From NCBI GenBank assembly GCA_016839805.1, contig JAEOTO010000009.1, forward strand, positions 1 to 64,000: a stretch of 64,000 nucleotides of DNA. The letters run 5' to 3'. A model generated the notes under the pieces. That model worked only from the letters and a program-made list of their open reading frames with translations, did not search any database and was not told the DNA's origin. The stretch comes from Candidatus Hermodarchaeota archaeon (GTDB lineage Archaea; Asgardarchaeota; Hermodarchaeia; Hermodarchaeales; Hermodarchaeaceae). Below, in pieces: positions 1,524 through 50,991 of the stretch (positions are counted from its first letter, which is position 1; each line of letters begins with the position of its first letter). Position numbers and translations under genes: made by a program.

Positions 1524-3188
1524 TTATTGGTCAGGTTGTTCAGTCTTGTTGAAAATTCGAATATGATAAGATATGCTACTACGATCATAGGATATACCAA
1601 AATGATTGAAAATATATTCAGCAATGTATCCCGACGATTTTTTCCGATTATGGAGTTCTAGAATTAGTTTTGAAATTTCTTCAGGTATGAATCGTTCTTT
1701 CTTCTTTTTTCGGGCTTTCATCATTTCAGCAAGCTTTTCTGAATTTTCTTTTCTGGATGTCGCAAAGCGAAATAGCGGAAGTTCAGCAGCGATAATAATA
1801 CACTTCTGCCTTCGGAATCGGACACGCTTTCGGTCAACTGTTGATTCAATCTGAAAACTTGCAAGAAGGTCTTGAATGAGAGAAATGTTGGGACCAGCAT
1901 AGATTCCTATATACTGGCTCTTAGTATCTGCCCAACCGTCACCATCGGAAAGCCCCTGTAGGAAAGCTAACCGTAAGTCATCAGGAGCGGTTCGGATCCA
2001 GTCAGCTTGTATTGGATGGTATGTTGTTCGTTGGTGGGGTTGAAGGCCTATACAAGTTCGAATTATCCAGGTGAGGAGGGGGCTTTTTTGGGTGCGCCAT
2101 TTGTGACACATGCCTTTGCCTGCGGATGAATCGTAGGGGTTGCCTTCTTCGGAGTGGATACCTAGTTGTCCGAAGTAGTAGGAGGCCGCTTCGCCGACTT
2201 GTTCACTCCAGGTGTAGTTTTTGGAGAGGTTGAGAGTGAGTTCGGTGGAGGAGACGCGGGGGCGTTGTTTTTCGTAGTCGCTGACAATGAGTCCGAGGAG
2301 ATAGTAGAAGGCGTCTTCGGGGTTTGGTGGACCGAAGCGCTGTTTCCATTGGTGCATTGCATTGTTGTCTAGGGGCTGGGATTGGTTAAGGACATTGGTG
2401 ATTTGTAAATATTGGGTGATTTGTTCTGGAACGGCGATGAAGTCTGTGGGGACGAAAGCACGTTCAAGGTTGAGGGGAAGCCATTTTAGGTCTCGTCCTG
2501 GTGGTGTGTGGGGGATGTGGCGGGTGAGTTCGATGTAATTAGGGCGGCGTCCGTTGAGCCAGTGCATGACTTGTGAGTGGTGGATTTTCAGTTGGCGGGC
2601 TACGTCGAGGTAGGCGCCGCCGTCTTGTAGGAGGTTGAGGGCTTGGAAGTAGAGGGTGCATTGGTGGAGGCGTTTTGGGAGTTGTTTTGTTTGTTCATGA
2701 AGTGGGGTGAGATAGTAAGTTTGAAGACGATCTATGACATCCTCAGTGGAACGGAGGCCATTGTTTTCTTTGTGGAGTTGGGTAATGGTTTTTTGGGCTT
2801 GTGTTTTTGACAAGATGCGCTCGAGTTCGTAGTATAGGCGGGGCTTTCGAGCTTCTTGGGCCCAGGCGGTGAATTTCTGGCGTCCAATTCCGAGTTCGTT
2901 GCCGAGGCGTTTGCGGTCGCCGCGTTGGAGGTGGGTTTGGTTTTTGAGGTGGGTGATGAGGGTGAGGTGGGTTTCGGCGTCGTGGAGCCAGGTTTTGTAG
3001 TTGGGGTTGCGTTTTATTCCTGGGTAGTCGGTGTTGAGGAGGTGGTGGAGTTGGTGGATGGTGGTGATGGGTGTGGTGTTGATGGTGGGGGTCCAGAAGT
3101 GGATGGGGGCGTGGTCGCGGGGTTTTGGGGGCTTTGACATGGGGTGTGGCTCCAGTAGTGGTATTAGTAGGGGGTAGAAGAACTCCAC
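1524..3188 (-). CDS. Free-standing HTH + LAGLIDADG homing-endonuclease-like protein
   Basis: YYLLGLIVSDYE and AFLQGLSDGDGW motifs; several HTH-like segments; start may be ATG at 3140. Confidence 0.8.
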   Translation of the reverse strand: MEFFYPLLIPLLEPHPMSKPPKPRDHAPIHFWTPTINTTPITTIHQLHHLLNTDYPGIKRNPNYKTWLHDAETHLTLITHLKNQTHLQRGDRKRLGNELGIGRQKFTAWAQEARKPRLYYELERILSKTQAQKTITQLHKENNGLRSTEDVIDRLQTYYLTPLHEQTKQLPKRLHQCTLYFQALNLLQDGGAYLDVARQLKIHHSQVMHWLNGRRPNYIELTRHIPHTPPGRDLKWLPLNLERAFVPTDFIAVPEQITQYLQITNVLNQSQPLDNNAMHQWKQRFGPPNPEDAFYYLLGLIVSDYEKQRPRVSSTELTLNLSKNYTWSEQVGEAASYYFGQLGIHSEEGNPYDSSAGKGMCHKWRTQKSPLLTWIIRTCIGLQPHQRTTYHPIQADWIRTAPDDLRLAFLQGLSDGDGWADTKSQYIGIYAGPNISLIQDLLASFQIESTVDRKRVRFRRQKCIIIAAELPLFRFATSRKENSEKLAEMMKARKKKKERFIPEEISKLILELHNRKKSSGYIAEYIFNHFGISYDRSSISYHIRIFNKTEQPDQ

Positions 3189-3264
3189 TACTGGCTGGGG
3201 GGCGGGATTTTGGTTGGTTTATAGGCGTTGTGGTGGGGTCGGGTGTCTGATGGCATGGGTTGTG

Positions 3265-4797
3265 TTAGTCGGTTTGGGGGTATTGTGGTGGTGTTCTTTT
3301 TCTGAAGTGGTAGGCGAGGATGACGGCGAAGATGATGAGGATGGTGAAGCTGATGATCATGCCGACCAGGAAGGCTTGGGTGATGTTGTGGTGCATGCTG
3401 TAGTACAGGATGTAGGACATGATGGGGATGTCTTCAACCTCGAGGAGGCAGGCATCCATATCGTTGGTGGGATATGGATATGTATGCACGGCATATCCCA
3501 CGATTATTAAATCGCCGTCGGTCATTTGGAGAATGGCCGTTCCCCCCTCATCGGTGCCATCTCCCCCATAAATGTTTGTCCAAAGGCTCTCACCCTGCGT
3601 GTCGGTGCGAGTGAGGATAACGTTAGTGTCTCCAAAGCCGTGTCCCCGAGTGAACTGACTGCACACAATGGCGAAGCCGCCATCATGGCATTCAATGAAT
3701 CCAGGGCTCCCGTATGCCGATAGTCCCATCCATCCTGTCTCCCAGAGAATATCGCCGTTGGCTGTGATGCCCGTAAGCGTTAGCCTATCCCGTAGCTTCG
3801 TATCTCCAGGATAAGGGCCCGAGCCATATCCTCCTCTGATGACATAGTCACCTGAACGTGTGGCGATGATTTGGTCAAAGAATTCATTTCTCCGCTCGCC
3901 ATAGGTGCAGTTCCACAGTAAGGTGCCATCCGTGTCAGTGCAGACCAGATAGCCGTCGGAATGCGTTTCGGTGGTGGTAGAATTTTGTGTAGTGCCCACT
4001 AAGAGGAAGCCTGAATCTGTTTCGATGAGATCTGAGGCGCCATCGGCGTCGGGTCCGCCATAGGTGTGGTTCCATTCGGGCGTGCCCGTTGAATCCGTTT
4101 TGAGGAGCCACGCATCAGAAGATCCTGCGCCATAGCTGGACGTCTTGCCGGCGATGGCGAATCCGTCATCGTCGCATTGGATGATGGCCTCTGGGTAGTC
4201 GCCTTCGGGTCCCCCAAGTGTTTGGCTCCACAGCTGGTGTCCGGCTGCATCGGTCCGAACTAAGAGGACATCCGCGTCGAAGCTTCCGGATTGGTTGACT
4301 AGCGTATAGCCGGCGAGTGCGAAACCGCCATCGGAGCATACGGCAAGGGCTGGTGTCCCTTCGGTTCTATTGGTGCCATACGTGTGGTTCCATAGGACTT
4401 GCTTCCCGTGTCTCCTTAAGCGGACTAACCAAAAATCGAAGGGTGCATCTGGACTGCCTCCGAGTCCCCAGCTCGCTGTACGTCCTGCGGCGATGCATTC
4501 TCCATCTTCCAATTGAAACAGCGATTCGATTCTATCTTCTTCCGGTCCACCAAAAATTTCTCCACTGAAGGTGCCCAGCTGCGGCATGGGAAGCGTGAAC
4601 ATGTACCCTAGTCCAACGTAGGAGACACTGAATACGATCAGTGATGCGAGTCCCAGGGCTATGAGGTGGGTTTGATTGAACCTGATAGAACGGGTGGTGA
4701 GTGGTTGGTGAGGATTATCAATCACGGGTTTGGGAGATTTAGGACAAGCCTCGGTGATGGAGGTTACTTCCCTCCCCGGTCTTTTTTGTCGTGCCAT
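3265..4797 (-). CDS. Membrane-anchored beta-propeller-like repeat surface protein
   Basis: ~50-aa repeats W.xTYG(G)..D.....DGGF..AG.T....D.WL...D..G; N- and C-terminal hydrophobic helices. Confidence 0.75.
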   Translation of the reverse strand: MARQKRPGREVTSITEACPKSPKPVIDNPHQPLTTRSIRFNQTHLIALGLASLIVFSVSYVGLGYMFTLPMPQLGTFSGEIFGGPEEDRIESLFQLEDGECIAAGRTASWGLGGSPDAPFDFWLVRLRRHGKQVLWNHTYGTNRTEGTPALAVCSDGGFALAGYTLVNQSGSFDADVLLVRTDAAGHQLWSQTLGGPEGDYPEAIIQCDDDGFAIAGKTSSYGAGSSDAWLLKTDSTGTPEWNHTYGGPDADGASDLIETDSGFLLVGTTQNSTTTETHSDGYLVCTDTDGTLLWNCTYGERRNEFFDQIIATRSGDYVIRGGYGSGPYPGDTKLRDRLTLTGITANGDILWETGWMGLSAYGSPGFIECHDGGFAIVCSQFTRGHGFGDTNVILTRTDTQGESLWTNIYGGDGTDEGGTAILQMTDGDLIIVGYAVHTYPYPTNDMDACLLEVEDIPIMSYILYYSMHHNITQAFLVGMIISFTILIIFAVILAYHFRKRTPPQYPQTD

Positions 4798-7447: not shown

Positions 7448-7623
7448 TTTCTGTTTTACTGACAAGCCCCAAGATTTCCTAATTACTGAAAGTGGGTAGG
7501 GAGGGGGGGTCTGATATACAGAATTTGGGTCGTTTTTGGGGTTGGGACTTATCATTGGTTTAGTATCGAGGATTTTTCCTGATTTTTTCAGGCTTGGAAT
7601 AACCAAATGAATCAGAAATTGGG

Positions 7624-8421
7624 TTATAGGAGGGTGATGAGTATTCCCCATTGGCCGATACTTAGCTGGAGTTCATTTCTGAATTCTTTGGCGTATCCTT
7701 CTTCGATGCGAATGGAGGTGTTCTCTTTTACTTGCCTAATCTGTTCATTCCATAGGACGAGTTTGATTGAGCCTGTATCATTGGTAAGTGTTGCATCGGC
7801 TACTTTGAGTTCTTTACCGGTCTTCTTCGAAATCACGGTGCGTGGACTGGAGAAATGATCCACTCTTCCTTCAACCAGAACTCTTTGTTGACCGTGCTGA
7901 ATGTTTGCAATCTGTGACATGGCTCGGGGAAATTTATCTGTCAGTCTTTTTTCATAATAGATGCCGTTCCATGTAGGATTGTCATGGGTTGTCCCAATTT
8001 GGACAAATCCAAGTCTCTTATAGAACGGATTTGTTCTTACATTCCACTCAGGAGTGCCTGCCACCCAAAGATCTGCGGATGGGTATTTTTCCCAGACACG
8101 TTCGAAGGCGTTCGTAGCAATGCTCTTTCTCATATAATCAGGGTCGACCCAGATTCTCTCACACACTTGATACCCTGGACCCCTATTCCCAGCAATGAAT
8201 CCTCCAACAATTTTAGAACCAAACAGAATCTTTCGATATTGCAGCCATTTGTTCTGAATTATCTTGGTGTTCCATTCAATAGAGTCATACCCTGGTGGAC
8301 CACCAGGACCAGGAGCACCAAACTCCGAGTCTGAATCAAACGCCCTTCTACACGTTTCTGTAAGAATCTCAACATCTTCAACCTCTGCCTTCTGAAGAGA
8401 AACATCATTAGGTTGATTCAT
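7624..8421 (-). CDS. GNAT N-acetyltransferase fused to a C-terminal SSB/RPA-type OB fold
   Basis: GNAT: IWVDPDYMRKSIA, NPFYKRLGF; OB: VADATLTNDTGSIKLVLWNEQ...IEEGYAKEFRNELQLSIG. Confidence 0.82.
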   Translation of the reverse strand: MNQPNDVSLQKAEVEDVEILTETCRRAFDSDSEFGAPGPGGPPGYDSIEWNTKIIQNKWLQYRKILFGSKIVGGFIAGNRGPGYQVCERIWVDPDYMRKSIATNAFERVWEKYPSADLWVAGTPEWNVRTNPFYKRLGFVQIGTTHDNPTWNGIYYEKRLTDKFPRAMSQIANIQHGQQRVLVEGRVDHFSSPRTVISKKTGKELKVADATLTNDTGSIKLVLWNEQIRQVKENTSIRIEEGYAKEFRNELQLSIGQWGILITLL

Positions 8422-8541
8422 GATAAGCACCAAGACGTTCGAGATAACACCCTAGTATCTCTGCTTCTCTCAATGATAGCAAGCTAAGGCTAGGGCCATC
8501 ATAAAAATCCTCTACTTCCCACCACAACCCACTCAACGCTA

Positions 8542-9639
8542 TTACAGTATCATCCAACTCGCTGCCTTGATCCCACGTTCCAGCGTCTCAACGCTGCCCG
8601 AAAAGGAAGCCGACTCGTCTGGGAGAAAGGTCTGTTGATTGTGTTGCCATTCAACCAAACTGACGAAGATGGTTCCGATGGAGAGGGTTAGTTCGATGGC
8701 GAGAGCTTGGAGGGGGAAGCTTGGAATACGGGGGACGGTGAGTACGGGGATGGGTTCGAGGGGGGTTACCTGTCCGAGCCATCGCATGGCTTCGAAGAGG
8801 AGGGGGTATTCGGAGTCTTCGTCGGTGGGTTCGGGGAGGTATTCGGGGGGGAATTGCCAGCCGTCGCGGTCGCTGCCTTCTTCGATTTCTGCGTGGGGTC
8901 CAATGAGGAAGACTCGGCCACTTCCGTAGTTGCAGGACACTATTGCAGGGTCACCAGTTAGGTCATATGTGCCTAAAACGGTGTAATCTGTATCGTCGTA
9001 TGGTTGGATGTAGGGGCCACCAACATAGAGGATTTGATAGGCTGCAGGCAGCGAATCGGTAATGGGGTGGGTCTGGTTGATGATGTTAATTTGGGTCATC
9101 GCATACCCGGGTTCAGGTCGATCAGCGATTTCAAAGATGGGTCCCCAGGCGACGCCTGGAAAGAGGTCAAGGTTCAGTTCGTCGCCTTCCACCTTATAGT
9201 TTGGTGGCGGAAAGTTGGCGTCGTCCATCCAGACCATGTAGTCACAGGCATAGTAGGCACCGGCGCAGATGCCAAAGTAGCCGCCGCCGTTGGCGACGAA
9301 TTCTTGGATCTTAGTTTTTCCTTCGAGGCCGACTTCTTCCCAATAGGCCGGGTAATGTCCGCCCGGCCAGATGAGCACATCAACATCGGTGAGGGCTCCG
9401 GCTTGGATGTCGGATCCACGAAGGGTCGTGAATTCACAGCCTATCCACGCAACGAGGTTAGGAATGATGATATCATCGACGGACCAGGCGCCCTCCCCAT
9501 TATAGTAGGCCACGCGGAGATCCTGCATTCGTCGACCAGAAGAAAGATAAACAAAGTGCGTGTACAAAACCGGGATCCCGATCACGACGATTAGGCTCAA
9601 TCCTAGGACAACAGCTACTACCCTAGTCCGTTTCCTCAT
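8542..9639 (-). CDS. Membrane-anchored BPL-N / class I glutamine amidotransferase-like hydrolase
   Basis: LIWPGG, GGGYFGICAGAY nucleophile elbow, GPHAE triad; N-terminal TM. Confidence 0.8.
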   Translation of the reverse strand: MRKRTRVVAVVLGLSLIVVIGIPVLYTHFVYLSSGRRMQDLRVAYYNGEGAWSVDDIIIPNLVAWIGCEFTTLRGSDIQAGALTDVDVLIWPGGHYPAYWEEVGLEGKTKIQEFVANGGGYFGICAGAYYACDYMVWMDDANFPPPNYKVEGDELNLDLFPGVAWGPIFEIADRPEPGYAMTQINIINQTHPITDSLPAAYQILYVGGPYIQPYDDTDYTVLGTYDLTGDPAIVSCNYGSGRVFLIGPHAEIEEGSDRDGWQFPPEYLPEPTDEDSEYPLLFEAMRWLGQVTPLEPIPVLTVPRIPSFPLQALAIELTLSIGTIFVSLVEWQHNQQTFLPDESASFSGSVETLERGIKAASWMIL

Positions 9640-43577: not shown

Positions 43578-44915
43578 ATGCCACATTTTCTCGATCTATT
43601 CCTTCAAGAGTTACAAGAAAAACGTGAAGCCTTCCGTCGGAGGTTAACAGGTGAAGAAGCCTCAGAATTAGATGGTCTTTTGAAGAAGTCGTTTATCAAG
43701 GAATGGCGAGAATTGCCTTCACCTAAAACAGAAGACCTTCGTGTAATTGCCGTAGACAGTGGACGTTCCATGCGAGAATACGCTGCAGGCTCACTCATGT
43801 ATATTTGTCGGGCTAGTGCATACACTTCGTGGGGAAAACAATATCGGCGAGTCGTTTCAAACGCGCATATGATTAGTTCTCCACGGGAACGCCTTATTGA
43901 CCTTGTGAGTCTGCGATCAGAGCACTTAGAACACCAAGTGGCTCTTGAAGCAGTGCAGGCATCATCGGATGTTGATTTGGTGTTACTTGATGGATCTTTG
44001 TATGGTCGGATTACGCATGTCCCAATCTCGTTCAATTATCCTGGAGAACGGGATTTGTATTTACGTTTCATGCAGACTTTTATTCGACTTCTTGAAGAAT
44101 GTCGTAAACGGAAGATTCTGATATTAGGTATAAGCAAGGATTCGGTGGCTCGGCATCTTACACGCCTGCTCTTGGAAACAGTCAAGGTTCAAGTATTGCA
44201 GAGCTTCAAGCAGATGCTTTCTTCCTCCGATTTCGAACAATTACACGAATATCTTGAAACCGAGGAGAAACAATCGGTTTCTGCTATTCGATTTCTACGG
44301 GATTTATCACTTAGCGACAACCAAGAACAATTGTTATGGGATTTACTCTATGAGCTGCGACGCCCACGACCTGACTTTGCCCTAATTCAGGCCTGGACTG
44401 AAACTGCGGGGTATACAACACCAATTGAACCCTATCCAGATGTGCCACTGTTCAAATATGAGTCAAAAGATCCCGCTGATTATGTTCGACGACGGTTTGT
44501 AAACGCCTACAAAGATTATCAGCAAGAGGAAGATTTTGAGAACTGGGCGATTCCAGTGATGCGGGGTACTTTCGAGCTCCCCACCTTCGTGACGTTTTGT
44601 GCAAAACTTGCACATAATGATACCCCGATGCGTATTGATATGCCTGCCTTTAATACAGGTTTACCAACCCGTATTTCACAGATTTCTGCGGCTCGAATGC
44701 TCGATCCAACTCCTCAGCGGGTAATAGAGGTCTTACAGCTGCTTCAAGGGGAATATGGTGGACCTGAACTCTACAACGTCTTTCTGGTCCGTGCAGACCA
44801 AGAAGCAAGATTACCTATGAGCGATGTGACAACCCTTTATGAACCATTGGTAGAAAAGGAATTGAAAATACCCCTAGTACCTAAACGTCGAGACAGGAGG
44901 ATACGATATGTCTAA
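43578..44915 (+). CDS. nurA: NurA 5'-3' nuclease
   Basis: IAVDSG, LLDGSL, GISKDS; operon context. Confidence 0.88.
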   Translation: MPHFLDLFLQELQEKREAFRRRLTGEEASELDGLLKKSFIKEWRELPSPKTEDLRVIAVDSGRSMREYAAGSLMYICRASAYTSWGKQYRRVVSNAHMISSPRERLIDLVSLRSEHLEHQVALEAVQASSDVDLVLLDGSLYGRITHVPISFNYPGERDLYLRFMQTFIRLLEECRKRKILILGISKDSVARHLTRLLLETVKVQVLQSFKQMLSSSDFEQLHEYLETEEKQSVSAIRFLRDLSLSDNQEQLLWDLLYELRRPRPDFALIQAWTETAGYTTPIEPYPDVPLFKYESKDPADYVRRRFVNAYKDYQQEEDFENWAIPVMRGTFELPTFVTFCAKLAHNDTPMRIDMPAFNTGLPTRISQISAARMLDPTPQRVIEVLQLLQGEYGGPELYNVFLVRADQEARLPMSDVTTLYEPLVEKELKIPLVPKRRDRRIRYV

Positions 44916-46539
44916 AACCCAACAAGATGAGCCAGTAGGATTCATTGTTGAAGAAGCCCGAGCTACAGAATTCATATTTGCTAGTGACCGAAAACGGTAT
45001 CCAGCGAAATTCGAATATCTCACCGTAAACTCAGAAGAATTGGTAGATAGGACACTCAAACCCGTCGAAGTTCTTGCTCAGGTTGAACGGATCACTTCCC
45101 AAAGCCTTGCCCTTCGTCGCAGTCTGGACATTGAAGCAATCTATCGGATTAAGGAAGCAGGAATTGATGATGTCAAAACCTGGGGAATTGCACGGGTCCT
45201 AGGCTATCTAGTTCCTACAACCAAAGGACAACCTCCACGAATTCTCCTTCCTCGCCGCGCAGTGACTCCAGGAAACGCGATTTATATTGCACCAGATAGT
45301 CTTCTTGCCAAATTCTATGCCTATCCAAAAGAAGAGAGTCTTTATGTTGGAAATCTAATTTCTCGACCTCAGATTCCCGTGCATTTACGCATTAACGGCT
45401 TTCGACGGCATGTCGCCATTCTAGCCCAAACGGGTGCTGGTAAAAGCTATCTTACAGGTGTATTAATCGAAGAACTCATGGATCGGGGAGCCACTGTAAT
45501 TATCATCGACCCTCATGCTGATTACGTATTCTTAAGTCAAAGTCTCAAAGGCGACAAACATGGTTTCTCAGACCGTGTAACTGTGTTCCAAAATCCCGAA
45601 AGCACCGGTCGATATAGCAAGAAAGATATCGGTGGAGTAGAATCCTATACCGTTCGATTAGCTGATCTTGACTTCGACGAATTATGCGGAATCTGCGGCA
45701 TTGGCGAAAAGTATACCAATATCCGGGCAGGTTTAGCGACGGCTCTAAAACAACTCCAAGAAAGAAATGTCGTCTATCTAACTGAGGATATCGAAAAGGA
45801 ACTGAACACAGTAGCCAATACTGAGGATTTAGATAAATCCATCCGCTTCGGTGCTCTCAACGCAACAAAATATGTTAGACGCCTTCACCGCCTTCGCGTC
45901 TTCTCGCGCAGCGGCGTACCTATAGAGAAAATCATCAAACCCTATCATTCGTCGATTATCGATTTATCCGGACTTGGCAATCGCAGCACAGATTACATCG
46001 TCAGTCGGCTGCTAAAAGATGTGTTTGAAGCTGTGGCCACCGATGCCTTTGCATATCCCGTTTTTGTAGTCGTAGAGGAGGCACACACCTTTGTCCCCCC
46101 TGAATTCCCCACCTATTCTGCGAATATTATTCGACGAATTGCTCAAGAAGGACGAAAATTCGGTGTCTTCCTTCTCCTAATTAGTCAACGACCTGGGCGA
46201 ATTCATCCAGATAGTCTTAGCCAATGTAATAGTCAGATCGTCCTCAAAATTACTAATCCTCGTGACCAAAACGCCATTGCTCAATCATCTGAACGGTTAA
46301 GTGAGGACCTTATCTCCGATCTACCCGGCTTAAATGTGGGCGAAGCTGTTGTAGTCGGTGATATTACTCGGACACCTGTGATGATTAAGGTTCGACCCCG
46401 TAATACGCGAGAGGGCGGTGCTGATATTGACGTCGTCGCTCGGCTCAAACAAGCCCGAAAAGCTGCAGGAATTGATGCCCAACTCGTTCAGGAACGTAAG
46501 CAAGAAAAGAAATTGAAGGGAGCGTTCTCTGAGGTGTAA
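44908..46539 (+). CDS. herA: HerA helicase/translocase
   Basis: N-terminal HAS barrel, RHVAILAQTGAGKS, DPHADY, VEEAH, EGRKFG, SQRP. Confidence 0.92.
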   Translation: MSKTQQDEPVGFIVEEARATEFIFASDRKRYPAKFEYLTVNSEELVDRTLKPVEVLAQVERITSQSLALRRSLDIEAIYRIKEAGIDDVKTWGIARVLGYLVPTTKGQPPRILLPRRAVTPGNAIYIAPDSLLAKFYAYPKEESLYVGNLISRPQIPVHLRINGFRRHVAILAQTGAGKSYLTGVLIEELMDRGATVIIIDPHADYVFLSQSLKGDKHGFSDRVTVFQNPESTGRYSKKDIGGVESYTVRLADLDFDELCGICGIGEKYTNIRAGLATALKQLQERNVVYLTEDIEKELNTVANTEDLDKSIRFGALNATKYVRRLHRLRVFSRSGVPIEKIIKPYHSSIIDLSGLGNRSTDYIVSRLLKDVFEAVATDAFAYPVFVVVEEAHTFVPPEFPTYSANIIRRIAQEGRKFGVFLLLISQRPGRIHPDSLSQCNSQIVLKITNPRDQNAIAQSSERLSEDLISDLPGLNVGEAVVVGDITRTPVMIKVRPRNTREGGADIDVVARLKQARKAAGIDAQLVQERKQEKKLKGAFSEV

Positions 46540-46544
46540 ACACC

Positions 46545-47708
46545 GTGCCGATTACTATTCTTCACACCTCAGATTCACATTTAGATATTCCTGCCATTAA
46601 ATTTGGTTCTCGGCGCTATGAACGAAAGAATGATTTTCTCAAATCCTTTGATACCATAGTTTCAACCGCTTTAGAAAAGAAACCCGATCTTTTTCTCCAT
46701 TCTGGCGACCTTTTTGACGGACTGAATCCGCGAAATCCGGTTCGAGCCCGAGTCATGGAAGCCTTTAGAAAACTACACGAGAAACAGATTCCCATTTACA
46801 TTATCAGCGGAAACCATGATGTTCCTCGGGCGCGTCGTCATGGAGTAGCCCCCCTATTAGAATACGCCCGTACAGGCTTTGTCAACTTTTTTCCTGAATG
46901 GGAAACAATACAATCTAGCACCATCAATTTGCATGACCTTGAAGTTGAAATCTCAGGAATTTCTTTTAATCCCACATTAGGACCTTCAGAAGATCCCCTT
47001 CATCAATTATCCATTCCGGGAAAAGGTGATGTTAACATCCTTCTAGCCCACTATAATGTAGAAGGACTTCGTGGAACCTTTCCCTATGAACCCGATATCC
47101 TACTCAAGTCAATACCCAAGAATCTGACATATCTTGCTGCAGGTCACAACCACGAATATCAAAAGCAACAAGTTGGAAACACAACAATCTGTACTCCCGG
47201 AAGCACAGAGCACGTAACCTTTTCTGAGGAATCTCAAAAGAAGGGTTTTGTCTGGTTAGAAATCGACACACATGCCGTACAAAAACTCCAATTCTTCCCC
47301 ATTGAAACCCGCCCAATGCAAACACAGGATGTCACGATTCCCGCTGATGTTAATATCAATCAAATGCTTATCAAAGAAATCGATCGTCTGCGAAATCCCC
47401 AGCTTATCCTCCGGTTTCGTCTTCAGGGTGTCATGACGATTAAATCAGCTGAACAGTATCGTCGAACTGAAGTCGTACGGCATGGGTTTGCGAAATGCTT
47501 CTCCACTGAAATCGTGGACGAACTCGAATACATCAGCCCCGATCCAGATTTTCTTACTCCTGAAACTGAATTGAAACCACCAATCACCGAATATCGTGAT
47601 TATGTTAATGCGAGAGTAAAACAAGAGAAAGACCTAGAAAAGAAGGCATTACTCCAAAAAGCATTAGATCGCGGGCTAGCTCTTTTAGAAGACTCAGGAG
47701 GTTGGTAG
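46545..47708 (+). CDS. mre11: Mre11/SbcD nuclease
   Basis: DSHL, SGDLFD, GNHD, AGHNH, PGSTE motifs. Confidence 0.92.
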   Translation: MPITILHTSDSHLDIPAIKFGSRRYERKNDFLKSFDTIVSTALEKKPDLFLHSGDLFDGLNPRNPVRARVMEAFRKLHEKQIPIYIISGNHDVPRARRHGVAPLLEYARTGFVNFFPEWETIQSSTINLHDLEVEISGISFNPTLGPSEDPLHQLSIPGKGDVNILLAHYNVEGLRGTFPYEPDILLKSIPKNLTYLAAGHNHEYQKQQVGNTTICTPGSTEHVTFSEESQKKGFVWLEIDTHAVQKLQFFPIETRPMQTQDVTIPADVNINQMLIKEIDRLRNPQLILRFRLQGVMTIKSAEQYRRTEVVRHGFAKCFSTEIVDELEYISPDPDFLTPETELKPPITEYRDYVNARVKQEKDLEKKALLQKALDRGLALLEDSGGW

Positions 47709-47712
47709 GGGA

Positions 47713-50079
47713 ATGGTCGTTTTACAGCAACTAGTGGCTCGAGATTTCAAGCACTTAGATCTTGATATCAACTTTCCTCAAGGCATCCTCGCGATTAGTG
47801 GTCCAAATGAATCCGGAAAATCTTCAATCTTTGAAGCAATACTCTTTGCCTTCTTCGGACGGACCCATAAAGCACCCTTGGGACAAAAAGACCGCCTCAT
47901 CAATTACGATGCGGATAAACTATTCGTACGTTTATTCTTTGAAGTTGAAGGTACCCAATACCGAATTACTCGACAAATCCATCGAAAACGTCCCAGTACT
48001 GCCCAACTCCACAAAATCGCTCGATCTGGACAAGCTTCTCTTCTAGCAACAGGGGTCAAAAATGTCGAAGCTGAAGTGAGCACTCTACTTAATGGAGTGG
48101 ATCTGAATGACCTACTGGCAAGCAATATCGTACTTCAGAAAGATTTAGACCGTCTGGCACAAATGCCGAAAATGGACCGTCGACACGTTATCAATGCAAT
48201 GATGGGACGCGAGTGCTTTTCACGCGCTGATAATAAACTAGCAACTGAACTCCGACCCTTAAGAAATGCCCTCAAACCAACAGGAGAAACTCTCAAAGAG
48301 CTGCGGTTCCGTAAAGACGCGTACCTAGAACAGACTCAGGAATTAGAAGCAAAGCAAAAAACTTTGACTCAAATTGAGGGTCAATTAAAAGAAATTAATC
48401 AAACATTTGCTCAAAGTGAGAAGAAATACAAGGCTGTCAAGGCTTACAAGATAGCAAAAGATGAACAAAAGGATTTAGAGCGTGAAATTAAGTTCCGACT
48501 AGAAACTCAGGACCGCTTGGAAAAGCAATTAGCGAATTTGGATAAACTTCAGAGGCAACAAAAGAAACTCCGTGGGCAAGCGAAACAGCTTGACTATCTT
48601 CAAGATGATATGACCATCTTTGAACAATTGCAAGACGCATCTGAAAAGCTCAAAGCTACTGTAGACGAACTACAAATGACGACCGAAGTTATTTCATCAC
48701 TTGAAGGCCAAGTGGGCGAGTTAAGTACACTGCAAGACGTTGTAACAGAGTATGAACAAATTAAGAATCAGCGAATCAGTATCGAAGTCAGCCAAAACCA
48801 GATTCTCTCACCTCTCCTTTACATTCCTTCGATTGGACTTCTTGCCGCTGGAATTATGGCACTCTTCTTCAATCTAATCGTAGGGATAGTTTTTCTCCTA
48901 GCATCCATTCCCTTTGTAGCTTATCTCATCAAGAATTATTTCAATTATAGTCGCCTTGCAGCCAAACTAGATCAGATGCGAAGAAAAGAAGAGGAACTGA
49001 GTGAACAGGTAGCAAAGTACCGGACCAAAGAAACTTTTGAAGAACAACTTCAAGACCGCCTCAACCGAGATAAAGAACTAACCAACCAAATCACGCAGCT
49101 CTCAACACAAGTTCAGAGTCAACTCAAAAACCTCTCAACGACATTATTAGAAGGGGTAAAACCACCAAAGGACTCTGACGCACACACTCTGCGAGACACT
49201 GTAAGAACCGTAGAACAAAGACTTTTGGAACTTCAAGCAAGTCAGAAATCAGTTACTGACCAGTTACAATCAATTGAGGGACAATTAGCAGATCTTCGTG
49301 AAGCAAAAGCAGATCTTACACGAATTGTGAAAGAAATTACTACCCTACGAGAACAACTTTCTTCAATGACTCTTCCCCCACTTCCCGAAGAAATTGCCGA
49401 GTATACCGAAGCGTTGTATGAGCAGCTCGACCAGCAAATCAAGACAATGGGTGAAGAAAAAGCGACTATACAAGAGAGTCGGAGAAATACTGTTCAGCGT
49501 ATTAATGAACTTTCAGTTCTTCTAAAAGAGAACGAAGGAGTTCTAGACGAATTCACAAATAAAGAACGGGAATTTTTCCAGCTTGATCAGAATATAAAAT
49601 CTGGTGAACTCACGATTGAATTAATACGTGAGGTCGCGGAACAAGGTCGTGAACAAGTACGTCCACGCGTTGTACATGTCATGGAACGTATATTGGCAAC
49701 GATTACTGATGGAAAATACCGGTTTCCTAAGCTAAGTGAAGACTATAGCCTTAAGGTCTATTCGGCAACAGCTGGTGAATATGTACAAGCAACACTCTAC
49801 AGCGGAGGAACCGAAGATCAATTCCTCCTAGCTCTCCGTCTTGGATTTGCTATTGCATTGCTTCCCCAAGGCCGTGGTGCGACGCCCCAATTCCTTCTAC
49901 TCGATGAACCCTTCGGAGGTTCTGATATTCAACGCAGGGATAATATTATTCGTCTACTGAAAGATGAATTATCTCGCACCTTTCAACAAATTATTGTCGT
50001 GAGTCATCAGTCGGCTGTCCTCTCAGCTTCTGAACATCAATTTCGAATGATCAATGGACGAATTATTCATTCGGATTAG
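47713..50079 (+). CDS. rad50: Rad50/SbcC-type SMC ATPase lacking the zinc hook, with a central hydrophobic hairpin (YhaN/SbcE-like)
   Basis: GPNESGKSS, Q-loop VLQKD, YSGGTEDQ, LLLDEPF, VSH; coiled coils; only one Cys; hydrophobic aa 364-406. Confidence 0.85.
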   Translation: MVVLQQLVARDFKHLDLDINFPQGILAISGPNESGKSSIFEAILFAFFGRTHKAPLGQKDRLINYDADKLFVRLFFEVEGTQYRITRQIHRKRPSTAQLHKIARSGQASLLATGVKNVEAEVSTLLNGVDLNDLLASNIVLQKDLDRLAQMPKMDRRHVINAMMGRECFSRADNKLATELRPLRNALKPTGETLKELRFRKDAYLEQTQELEAKQKTLTQIEGQLKEINQTFAQSEKKYKAVKAYKIAKDEQKDLEREIKFRLETQDRLEKQLANLDKLQRQQKKLRGQAKQLDYLQDDMTIFEQLQDASEKLKATVDELQMTTEVISSLEGQVGELSTLQDVVTEYEQIKNQRISIEVSQNQILSPLLYIPSIGLLAAGIMALFFNLIVGIVFLLASIPFVAYLIKNYFNYSRLAAKLDQMRRKEEELSEQVAKYRTKETFEEQLQDRLNRDKELTNQITQLSTQVQSQLKNLSTTLLEGVKPPKDSDAHTLRDTVRTVEQRLLELQASQKSVTDQLQSIEGQLADLREAKADLTRIVKEITTLREQLSSMTLPPLPEEIAEYTEALYEQLDQQIKTMGEEKATIQESRRNTVQRINELSVLLKENEGVLDEFTNKEREFFQLDQNIKSGELTIELIREVAEQGREQVRPRVVHVMERILATITDGKYRFPKLSEDYSLKVYSATAGEYVQATLYSGGTEDQFLLALRLGFAIALLPQGRGATPQFLLLDEPFGGSDIQRRDNIIRLLKDELSRTFQQIIVVSHQSAVLSASEHQFRMINGRIIHSD

Positions 50080-50991
50080 TTATATCAGTTTAATCAGAAC
50101 TGGGCGAGTTTCTTGGTATTGATATCCTTGAGTTTCAAGGAATCCGTATTGATTTTCACGGGAAAATACTGTCAATTGAGTTACACCGTTTGTTTTACTC
50201 AAAAACTCAGTAACTGGTAATACAGTTGCCAAGAAGCTGGAGGCTTGGCTAGTTTTAGCTAACCAAATTCTTACATAGTGATGGTCAGTGGATAAGGCTT
50301 CATCATTTTCTTGACGTAGCAACCAAAGATTAGGACGTGGTATGTCGGTTTCTAGTAGTGTGTATAATCGATTCATGTTACGTAAATATGCCCAGGTATA
50401 CTGTGAGGAGTAATTAATTCCCAGCCCTGGCTCAAAACCCATTGGTAGTTGTTTACGTGGTGCCCATTGTAGAGGAATTCTTTGGATACTAGATTTGGTA
50501 GGGAGAAGAGATTCGCGTTTTAACGACTTGGTGAATTTGGCTTCGTGTCCTGAAAGGTTAAAACCATTAGTGCAGAAAAAATTGACGGCTTCATCATCCT
50601 CAGTTATCGTAGTTACTTGTGTACAGCCCTTCGCCTGGCTAATTTGGCAAGCATGTTCTAATAGAATTGAGCCAATGCCTTCATGGCGATGCTCAGGGTC
50701 AACAATAATCCATGCGATATTACCTTGCTTTGTGGTCGGTGATATCTTCTCAAAAAGAAGTTCGACCTCTCCCAGGATAGCATCTTTGGTACGGGCTACT
50801 AGAATGATTCCACCTGCATCTTCCATTACCTGTAGATGAAGGTTGAGTGTGTCAGGGTCAACCCAAGGACCTTCTTGCTGCCAGCGCTCCCATTTAGAGA
50901 GCCCTTCTTCAGCAAAGGTGCTTCGATTTAGGGTTACTAGGCCTAATAGGTCCCGTTTTACATTGGCTTCTTGCACTATAACTTCATTCAC
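50080..50991 (-). CDS. GNAT N-acetyltransferase
   Basis: IVDPEHRHEGIGSILL, AVNFFCTNGF. Confidence 0.82.
   Translation of the reverse strand: MNEVIVQEANVKRDLLGLVTLNRSTFAEEGLSKWERWQQEGPWVDPDTLNLHLQVMEDAGGIILVARTKDAILGEVELLFEKISPTTKQGNIAWIIVDPEHRHEGIGSILLEHACQISQAKGCTQVTTITEDDEAVNFFCTNGFNLSGHEAKFTKSLKRESLLPTKSSIQRIPLQWAPRKQLPMGFEPGLGINYSSQYTWAYLRNMNRLYTLLETDIPRPNLWLLRQENDEALSTDHHYVRIWLAKTSQASSFLATVLPVTEFLSKTNGVTQLTVFSRENQYGFLETQGYQYQETRPVLIKLI

Follow-up and report, generated by a model that had tools for sequence, protein, structure and literature searches.

A predicted membrane hairpin in place of the zinc hook in the Rad50 of an Asgard archaeal nurA–herA–mre11–rad50 operon

Main

To our knowledge, Rad50 is treated as defined by its zinc hook, a feature regarded as near-universal, and DNA-end sensing by the ring-to-rod model depends on arms that are joined at their tips. 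What, then, would take the place of the hook in a Rad50 that lacks one? The question is raised by a 64,000-nt stretch of DNA (the window) from a Hermodarchaeia (Asgard) genome, 87% complete, in which positions 43578–50079 hold an intact nurA–herA–mre11–rad50 operon. An original prediction, made from the letters of the window, proposed that a membrane hairpin has replaced the hook of this Rad50 and that the operon is either an archaeal resection operon with a recruited YhaN-like SMC or a second system for incoming DNA. Here we examine the operon, the apex of its Rad50, the history of the cassette and its standing in the genomes that carry it.

An intact four-gene operon

All four genes lie on the forward strand: nurA (43578..44915; 445 aa) encodes a 5′–3′ nuclease (PF09376, 6e-18), herA (44908..46539; 543 aa) a hexameric DNA translocase (PF01935 (DUF87) and NF040819), mre11 (46545..47708; 387 aa) an Mre11-type metallophosphoesterase nuclease (best match NF041031) and rad50 (47713..50079; 788 aa) a Rad50/SbcC-family SMC ATPase without a zinc hook. 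The ORF coordinates bear out the tight junctions first noted, an 8-bp overlap followed by gaps of 5 and 4 bp. A GNAT acetyltransferase gene (50080..50991, reverse strand) abuts rad50 convergently; it is a conserved neighbour across Hermodarchaeia and lies outside the operon.

Judged by their residues, the four enzymes are catalytically intact. The acidic residues D60, E118, D138 and D407 of NurA are invariant within this operon type; HerA has a Walker A K179, a Walker B E390/E391 and an arginine finger R416; and Mre11 has all seven metal ligands (D10, H12, D55, H91, H169, H201 and H203). The split ABC ATPase head of Rad50 is complete in Walker A, Q-loop, signature, Walker B, D-loop and H-loop, with Walker A at aa 30–37 (47800..47823, forward; G30, N32, G35 and K36 invariant) and the C-terminal head motifs at 49801..50010 (forward), comprising the signature SGG at 697–699, Walker B/D-loop at 728–738 and the H-loop H765.

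Pfam and NCBIfam scans identify NurA, HerA, an Mre11-type metallophosphoesterase and SMC/Rad50, all scoring under the cut-offs of the named equivalog families. The canonical archaeal NurA–HerA–Mre11–Rad50 system (Sulfolobus, Pyrococcus; NF041034, NF003034) has the same four coupled genes, catalytic motifs and Rad50 head fold, but scores against its families fall far under the cut-offs (133 versus 1000; 129 versus 700), and the window Rad50, unlike the canonical one, has a hydrophobic hairpin and no CxxC hook. Its nearest named relative, from a genome labelled Hermod_104, is 88% identical.

A membrane-type hairpin at the Rad50 apex

A single Cys (C168) leaves the window Rad50 without a CxxC hook, and its ABC motifs are intact, both as first noted. 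The hydrophobic stretch is likewise confirmed at aa 364–406 (48802..48930, forward), an apical helical hairpin with K/R-rich flanks that is predicted to be transmembrane (TM). The full run without D, E, K or R extends over 48 residues (aa 359–406), is centred at 0.49 of the chain length and reaches a Kyte–Doolittle 19-mer maximum of 2.68. AlphaFold2 (pLDDT 83.9), which contains no membrane and was given a 40-sequence alignment, models the run as a helix at 367–386, a one-residue break at N387 and a helix from 388, corresponding to predicted TM helices 367–386 and 388–407 around a turn at N387. A long antiparallel coiled coil (helices 167–364 and 408–664) flanks the hairpin in the model, whose best PDB matches are Mre11–Rad50 complex structures. 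Pro367, at the hairpin start, is conserved in 79% of 39 sequences. Prediction of an apex complex from two copies of aa 300–475 scored 0.23, below the 0.42 mark.

Several comparisons bear on the nature of this apex. First, hairpin and hook almost never occur in the same protein. The hydrophobic stretch lies at the coiled-coil midpoint in 107 of the top 107 homologues, none of which has a CxxC, and all 139 new library representatives of at least 550 aa have a hydrophobic apex and no CxxC. Among 380 distinct full-length proteins, a set collected from TM queries whose counts are not population frequencies, the hairpin alone is present in 323, CxxC alone in 41, neither in 15 and both in one, making the two practically mutually exclusive. 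The mid-protein Kyte–Doolittle maximum ranges from −0.27 to 1.41 in the 41 hook-bearing relatives and from 1.81 to 3.38 in the 323 hookless proteins, the boundary of the TM-apex class (1.8) being our own classification cut-off, which no hook protein approaches. Because these ranges do not overlap, the hydrophobic apex is not a matter of chance.

Second, the hairpin columns (364–405) contain one D or E among 40 sequences of 20–69% identity, and residue identity within them is low, as lipid-facing helices would show. Third, both flanks are basic, with a K+R:D+E ratio of 1291:330 (3.9) versus 16114:19549 (0.8) in the arms of 247 proteins, in keeping with the positive-inside rule; in the same proteins the apical uncharged run has a median length of 42 aa and sits at 0.49 ± 0.02 of the chain. 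Fourth, a mean hydrophobicity of 0.78 and a low moment (0.12–0.15) indicate helices that are hydrophobic all round rather than amphipathic.

Two predicted helices of ~20 aa, poor in charge and bounded by basic flanks, thus support a membrane-type hairpin in place of the zinc hook. The ABC head has to be assembled from both ends of the chain, so the apex would have to make an even number of bilayer crossings, or else dip into the membrane. From these sequence marks we infer a hairpin that passes through the membrane twice and leaves both arms cytoplasmic. A frameshift or fusion artefact is ruled out by the identical architecture of hundreds of independent proteins.

An old branch beside YhaN/SbcE

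We placed the window Rad50 with a maximum-likelihood tree of the heads (74 rows, with eight long or duplicate rows omitted; 318 head columns, without apex and arms; LG+C20 PMSF). A 99/96 branch separates all hook-bearing proteins, E. coli SbcC among them, from a set made up of the archaeal TM clade and bacterial orthologues of YhaN/SbcE from Bacillus, Listeria and elsewhere. The suspected kinship to YhaN/SbcE is therefore real. Support is 100/100 for the YhaN clade, 92/71 for the TM Rad50s as a whole and 99/98 for the subclade that includes the window Rad50. An AU test on a subset of 36 rows, run with a simpler model that is more prone to false rejection, rejects a single group of archaeal TM proteins and canonical archaeal Rad50 (p=0.0002).

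Kinship does not amount to recruitment of a YhaN-like SMC into an archaeal operon, as one version of the original prediction had it: the window Rad50 is sister to YhaN rather than nested within it, and the Mre11s of TM loci form a clade of their own (96), as do nearly all of their HerAs (93). These matching clades, which set the TM cassette apart from the canonical archaeal system, indicate that it evolved as a unit, an old parallel operon and not a recently inserted gene. In two Asgard loci (L149 and L153) a HerA of the TM-locus type is paired with a hook Mre11–Rad50, which shows that the HerA and Mre11–Rad50 halves are exchangeable. One Thermoproteota bin (L190 and L200) combines a membrane-type apex with heads and an Mre11 that are canonical in type; the AU test on the same 36-row subset rejects a group of its proteins and the other TM proteins (p=0.0002), so its hook-to-hairpin switch is apparently an independent second origin or an apex swap.

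The nearest precedent for a hookless hydrophobic apex is the centre of Bacillus subtilis SbcE. SbcE (YhaN)/SbcF (YhaO; PF13514) likewise comprises an SbcC-like SMC without CxxC, whose hydrophobic centre has a conserved proline and whose gene adjoins that of an Mre11/SbcD-like nuclease. The paper defining SbcE describes this central domain, in Gram-positive bacteria, as hydrophobic, insoluble and CxxC-less with a conserved proline, and neither names it transmembrane nor mentions archaea (PMC2811018). The first reading had credited YhaN/SbcE with TM segments and similar motifs. The former holds for the Bacillus and Listeria apices, which are membrane-type; the latter does not, because the Walker B and SGG signature of the window Rad50 are canonical, whereas YhaN of Bacillus and Listeria has a DD-type Walker B and no SxG match. 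The window Rad50 is also shorter (about 790 versus 900–1000 aa) and matches PF13514 with 25 bits over aa 16–99, versus 82–95 bits over the full length of Bacillus and Listeria YhaN. Finally, it is archaeal, coupled to NurA–HerA and the only Rad50 found in sister genomes (below), whereas SbcE is an extra beside SbcC. On its sequence, then, the TM Rad50 is predicted to be Rad50-like in function but lacks the hook, and shares the ancestry and architecture of SbcE while standing outside the SbcE family.

Lamassu LmuB and other SbcC-derived defence SMCs are likewise DNA-end sensors derived from SbcC/Rad50, some of them hookless (PMC12663957). They differ in that no membrane segment is reported for LmuB, which partners the LmuA effector rather than Mre11 and HerA–NurA, and the window proteins match the LmuB model only partially. 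Membranes go unmentioned in a survey of SMC-related proteins of archaea (PMC9389158), and our literature search, in which coverage of subscription papers was thin, turned up no account of a Rad50 with a transmembrane apex.

The hook operon is the extra one

Is the TM operon the main resection system or an additional one? A search of the source genome for a second, hook-containing rad50, suggested along with the original prediction, found a complete hook-Rad50 operon on another contig (C43). The first impression from this contig, that the TM operon is accessory to the hook operon, was reversed by the sister genomes. The class is a single family of 19 genomes, the 18 sisters being 72–91% complete. 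All 19 carry the TM Rad50 gene at a fixed locus with conserved downstream neighbours. The hook Rad50 and its HerA were found in 0 of 18 and 0 of 17 sister genomes, respectively, which at this completeness counts as 'not found'. Family-level searches of the 18 sisters recovered condensin SMC, an SMC5/6-like protein and the TM Rad50 as the only SMC-type ATPases. The TM form is thus the only Rad50 found in 18 of 18 sisters, and it is unlikely that a shared hook gene was missed in every one. A 966-aa SMC on contig C10 was ruled out as a hidden Rad50, having no Mre11 neighbour and SMC-type best matches.

The ends of C43 overlap two other contigs, C21 (127 nt) and C38 (76 nt), at 100%, which places it on the chromosome of the source genome. 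Direct repeats bound the first 14 kb of C43, and relatives run on into different sequence at this site. Its place in this variable stretch, which the sisters lack, makes the hook operon look like a more recent acquisition; it is the extra operon of the source genome. Contamination is ruled out by the exact end overlaps, ordinary tetranucleotide composition and flanking genes common to congeners.

The same status recurs at a distance. In three single-contig Thermofilaceae genomes (1,781,889, 1,750,259 and 1,611,988 bp), no SMC other than the TM form is linked to Mre11; each also has a second SMC-like gene, without Mre11 beside it, which resembles arcadin-4 in two of them and is a fragment of 372 aa in the remaining one. 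Being the sole Rad50 found in 18 sisters and the sole Mre11-linked SMC in these three genomes, the TM form points to housekeeping repair rather than to a spare defence or uptake system, and the proposal of a second system for incoming DNA is not upheld.

Outside the class, the genomes sampled include 232 from other Asgard lineages, about 8 of which have the TM-Rad50 operon, and 201 from Thermoproteota, 17 of which do. It often accompanies a canonical operon in the same genome (G142/G252 and G279), and TM Rad50 also occurs in bacterial-looking metagenome loci. The nurA–herA–mre11–rad50 order recurs with TM Rad50 in Infirmifilum and further archaea. Wherever flanks are available, TM Rad50 lies beside an intact Mre11 gene; the suggested survey of such loci found all four genes in 12 of the 22 distinct loci with enough flank and mre11 only in the other 10. 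Some loci (L006 and L008) have defence-type neighbours, DrmB and a Mokosh-like helicase. We count the patchy spread, the frequent canonical operon alongside, the occasional defence neighbours and the lack of nurA–herA at about half of the loci (10/22) against a main repair role.

Proposed mechanism

We lean towards a membrane-anchored Rad50 at the core of the main DNA double-strand-break resection system of this lineage, a DNA-end-processing machine that probably works tethered to the cell membrane. In the established pathway, Mre11 clips the DNA end, HerA–NurA resect it and RadA recombines. In E. coli Mre11–Rad50, an end is recognized when the coiled coils, joined by the hook, close from a ring into a rod, a change that two DNA strands in the ring prevent (PMC12624138). 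In the archaeal complex, each Rad50 of an Mre11(2)–Rad50(2) assembly would be suspended from the membrane by its own hairpin, with heads reaching ~25–30 nm into the cytoplasm (~200 helical residues per arm at 0.15 nm). The bilayer would assume the topological job of the hook, with the two hairpins keeping the coiled-coil ring shut at its far end, and lateral diffusion of the two anchors would still permit ring-to-rod closure. DNA ends would be caught and clipped by Mre11 at the membrane and then passed to HerA–NurA for 5′–3′ resection, after which RadA would take over for homologous recombination. Linear DNA that enters through the membrane would be processed at this step as well, as in the transformation role of SbcE.

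Both repair and the processing of incoming DNA are supported by the roles of the sister family: SbcE acts in double-strand-break repair upstream of RecA and localizes to the cell pole, and its loss lowers transformation 20-fold, SbcE being recruited to the uptake pole (PMC2811018). In the 87%-complete source genome, ComEC has no family match and DprA nothing above cut-off, making uptake the weaker reading there. SbcE–YFP foci also form on nucleoids and move from pole to pole within a minute (PMC2811018); we count these foci, which a fixed anchor does not require, against membrane-anchored resection.

If the mechanism is right, double-strand-break resection would be placed at the cell envelope, in a class among the closest relatives of eukaryotes, and the unexplained 'central domain' of SbcE would gain a function. 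Organisms with only a membrane-hairpin Rad50 would show that the hook does a topological job, one for which a bilayer can substitute. A wider proposal, which might equally hold or fail, is that a second ancient Mre11–Rad50 branch, comprising bacterial SbcE/YhaN and many archaea, closes its ring with the bilayer, has wholly replaced the hook Rad50 in Hermodarchaeia and Thermofilaceae with resection at the membrane, and arose through at least two switches. The present analysis itself addressed the head phylogeny with its AU tests, the joint evolution of Mre11 with HerA, the second origin that is apparent in the Thermoproteota bin and the placement of the source genome's hook operon in an island.

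Alternative explanations

A membrane-anchored Rad50 could instead be a gatekeeper mainly for incoming DNA, in virus or plasmid defence or import processing, rather than for chromosomal breaks. The scatter of the operon outside Hermodarchaeia and Thermofilaceae, its coexistence with canonical operons and the defence-type neighbours at L006 and L008 would suit such a role, as would the 20-fold loss of transformation and uptake-pole position of SbcE (PMC2811018) and the sensing of viral DNA ends by SbcCD-derived Lamassu (PMC12663957). We nevertheless regard it as unlikely, given a sole Rad50 at a fixed locus with conserved neighbours in 18 sisters and the ComEC and DprA results in the 87%-complete genome. 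Against PADLOC models, moreover, NurA and Mre11 have no match and HerA and Rad50 have generic ATPase matches only.

The hairpin might also lie outside the membrane, as a metal-free hydrophobic dimerization tip in which two hairpins form a four-helix bundle replacing the hook. It occupies the exact position of hook dimerization, small residues (G/A/S) recur in its helices, and hookless SMC-like proteins are known, such as the short Lamassu LmuB (PMC12663957). A soluble bundle, however, needs a polar outer face, and helices with a moment of 0.12–0.15 offer no charged face; no interface identity is conserved, both flanks are positive-inside and the length fits two bilayer spans, which together make a soluble tip very improbable.

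Compared with membrane-anchored resection, a chromosome-to-membrane tether for segregation or nucleoid organization, with resection secondary, has little to commend it: an SMC-type arm with a membrane anchor suits tethering, and Rad50 offshoots such as arcadin-4 have been repurposed in archaea (PMC9389158), but TM Rad50 always adjoins an intact Mre11 where flanks are available, and HerA–NurA too in half of the loci, and condensin SMC–ScpAB and an SMC5/6-like complex are already encoded in the genomes of the class.

Hook-type operon and its variable region

In the genome of the window, the complete nurA-herA-mre11-rad50 operon of the hook type, whose Rad50 carries the canonical CxxC zinc hook, sits inside a variable region of ~14 kb on contig C43 (L004:128–14121), bounded at both ends by a direct repeat of 35–42 nt (copies at L004 99–138 and 14080–14121). 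This operon was found in 0 of the 18 sister genomes of the same class, and no integrase was recognised among the scanned ORFs of the region.

The core of the repeat is the 3′ end of a ~220-nt intergenic element at the end of contig C21 (L254:6100–6322, overlapping L004:1–127), which congeners keep at 87–98%; beyond the core, the DNA differs between strains. In two congeners, the element directly abuts the homologue of window 7610–8634, and the window itself has a degenerate core copy on its minus strand at 8600–8634. RNase P RNA, which is located on contig C22, was ruled out as the identity of the element, and an Rfam scan of it gave no match. The element is possibly an unknown ncRNA that doubles as an integration hotspot.

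Module exchange, an apparent second switch and genomic context

Two Asgard loci, L149 (G239) and L153 (G194), couple hook-type Mre11-Rad50 with NurA-HerA of the TM-operon type, the type in which Rad50 has a predicted membrane hairpin instead of CxxC; their gene pairing reflects modules exchanged between the two operon lineages. An apparent second, independent hook-to-hairpin switch occurs in the Thermoproteota bin G343, where two near-identical Rad50 copies (L190:1456–3870 and L200:1444–3870) have heads and Mre11 of canonical type but a membrane-type apex with CxxC missing.

In some genomes, the TM operon stands in a defence-island context (L008:9555–16174 and L006:9786–16325), where it lies beside either genes resembling those of DISARM (DrmB at 1.8e-177) or a Mokosh-like helicase together with a PLD nuclease and cas6.

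Other variants and loci

At L234:1988–4264 (G279) and L239:1562–3841 (G426), the Rad50 in the canonical position (~758 aa) lacks both CxxC and a hydrophobic apex, and each host also possesses the TM operon. Five loci (L097, L104, L110, L122 and L123) encode short TM-apex SMC proteins of 580–670 aa, kin of the TM-Rad50 clade; Mre11 was not detected in their neighbourhood. At L040 and L041 (Asgard G130 and G235), the gene adjacent to mre11 encodes a very short Rad50-like protein of 428 aa that lacks hook and TM, and matches of about this length repeat across that Asgard family.

Within the window, two minus-strand ORFs rich in Pro/His/Thr (1524–4797) coincide with strong GC skew (0.35 at 2001–4000). 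Contig C22 holds a further nurA-herA pair without mre11-rad50 (L044:15476–18204), ~9 kb from smc-scpAB; most sisters hold a second nurA of similar length.
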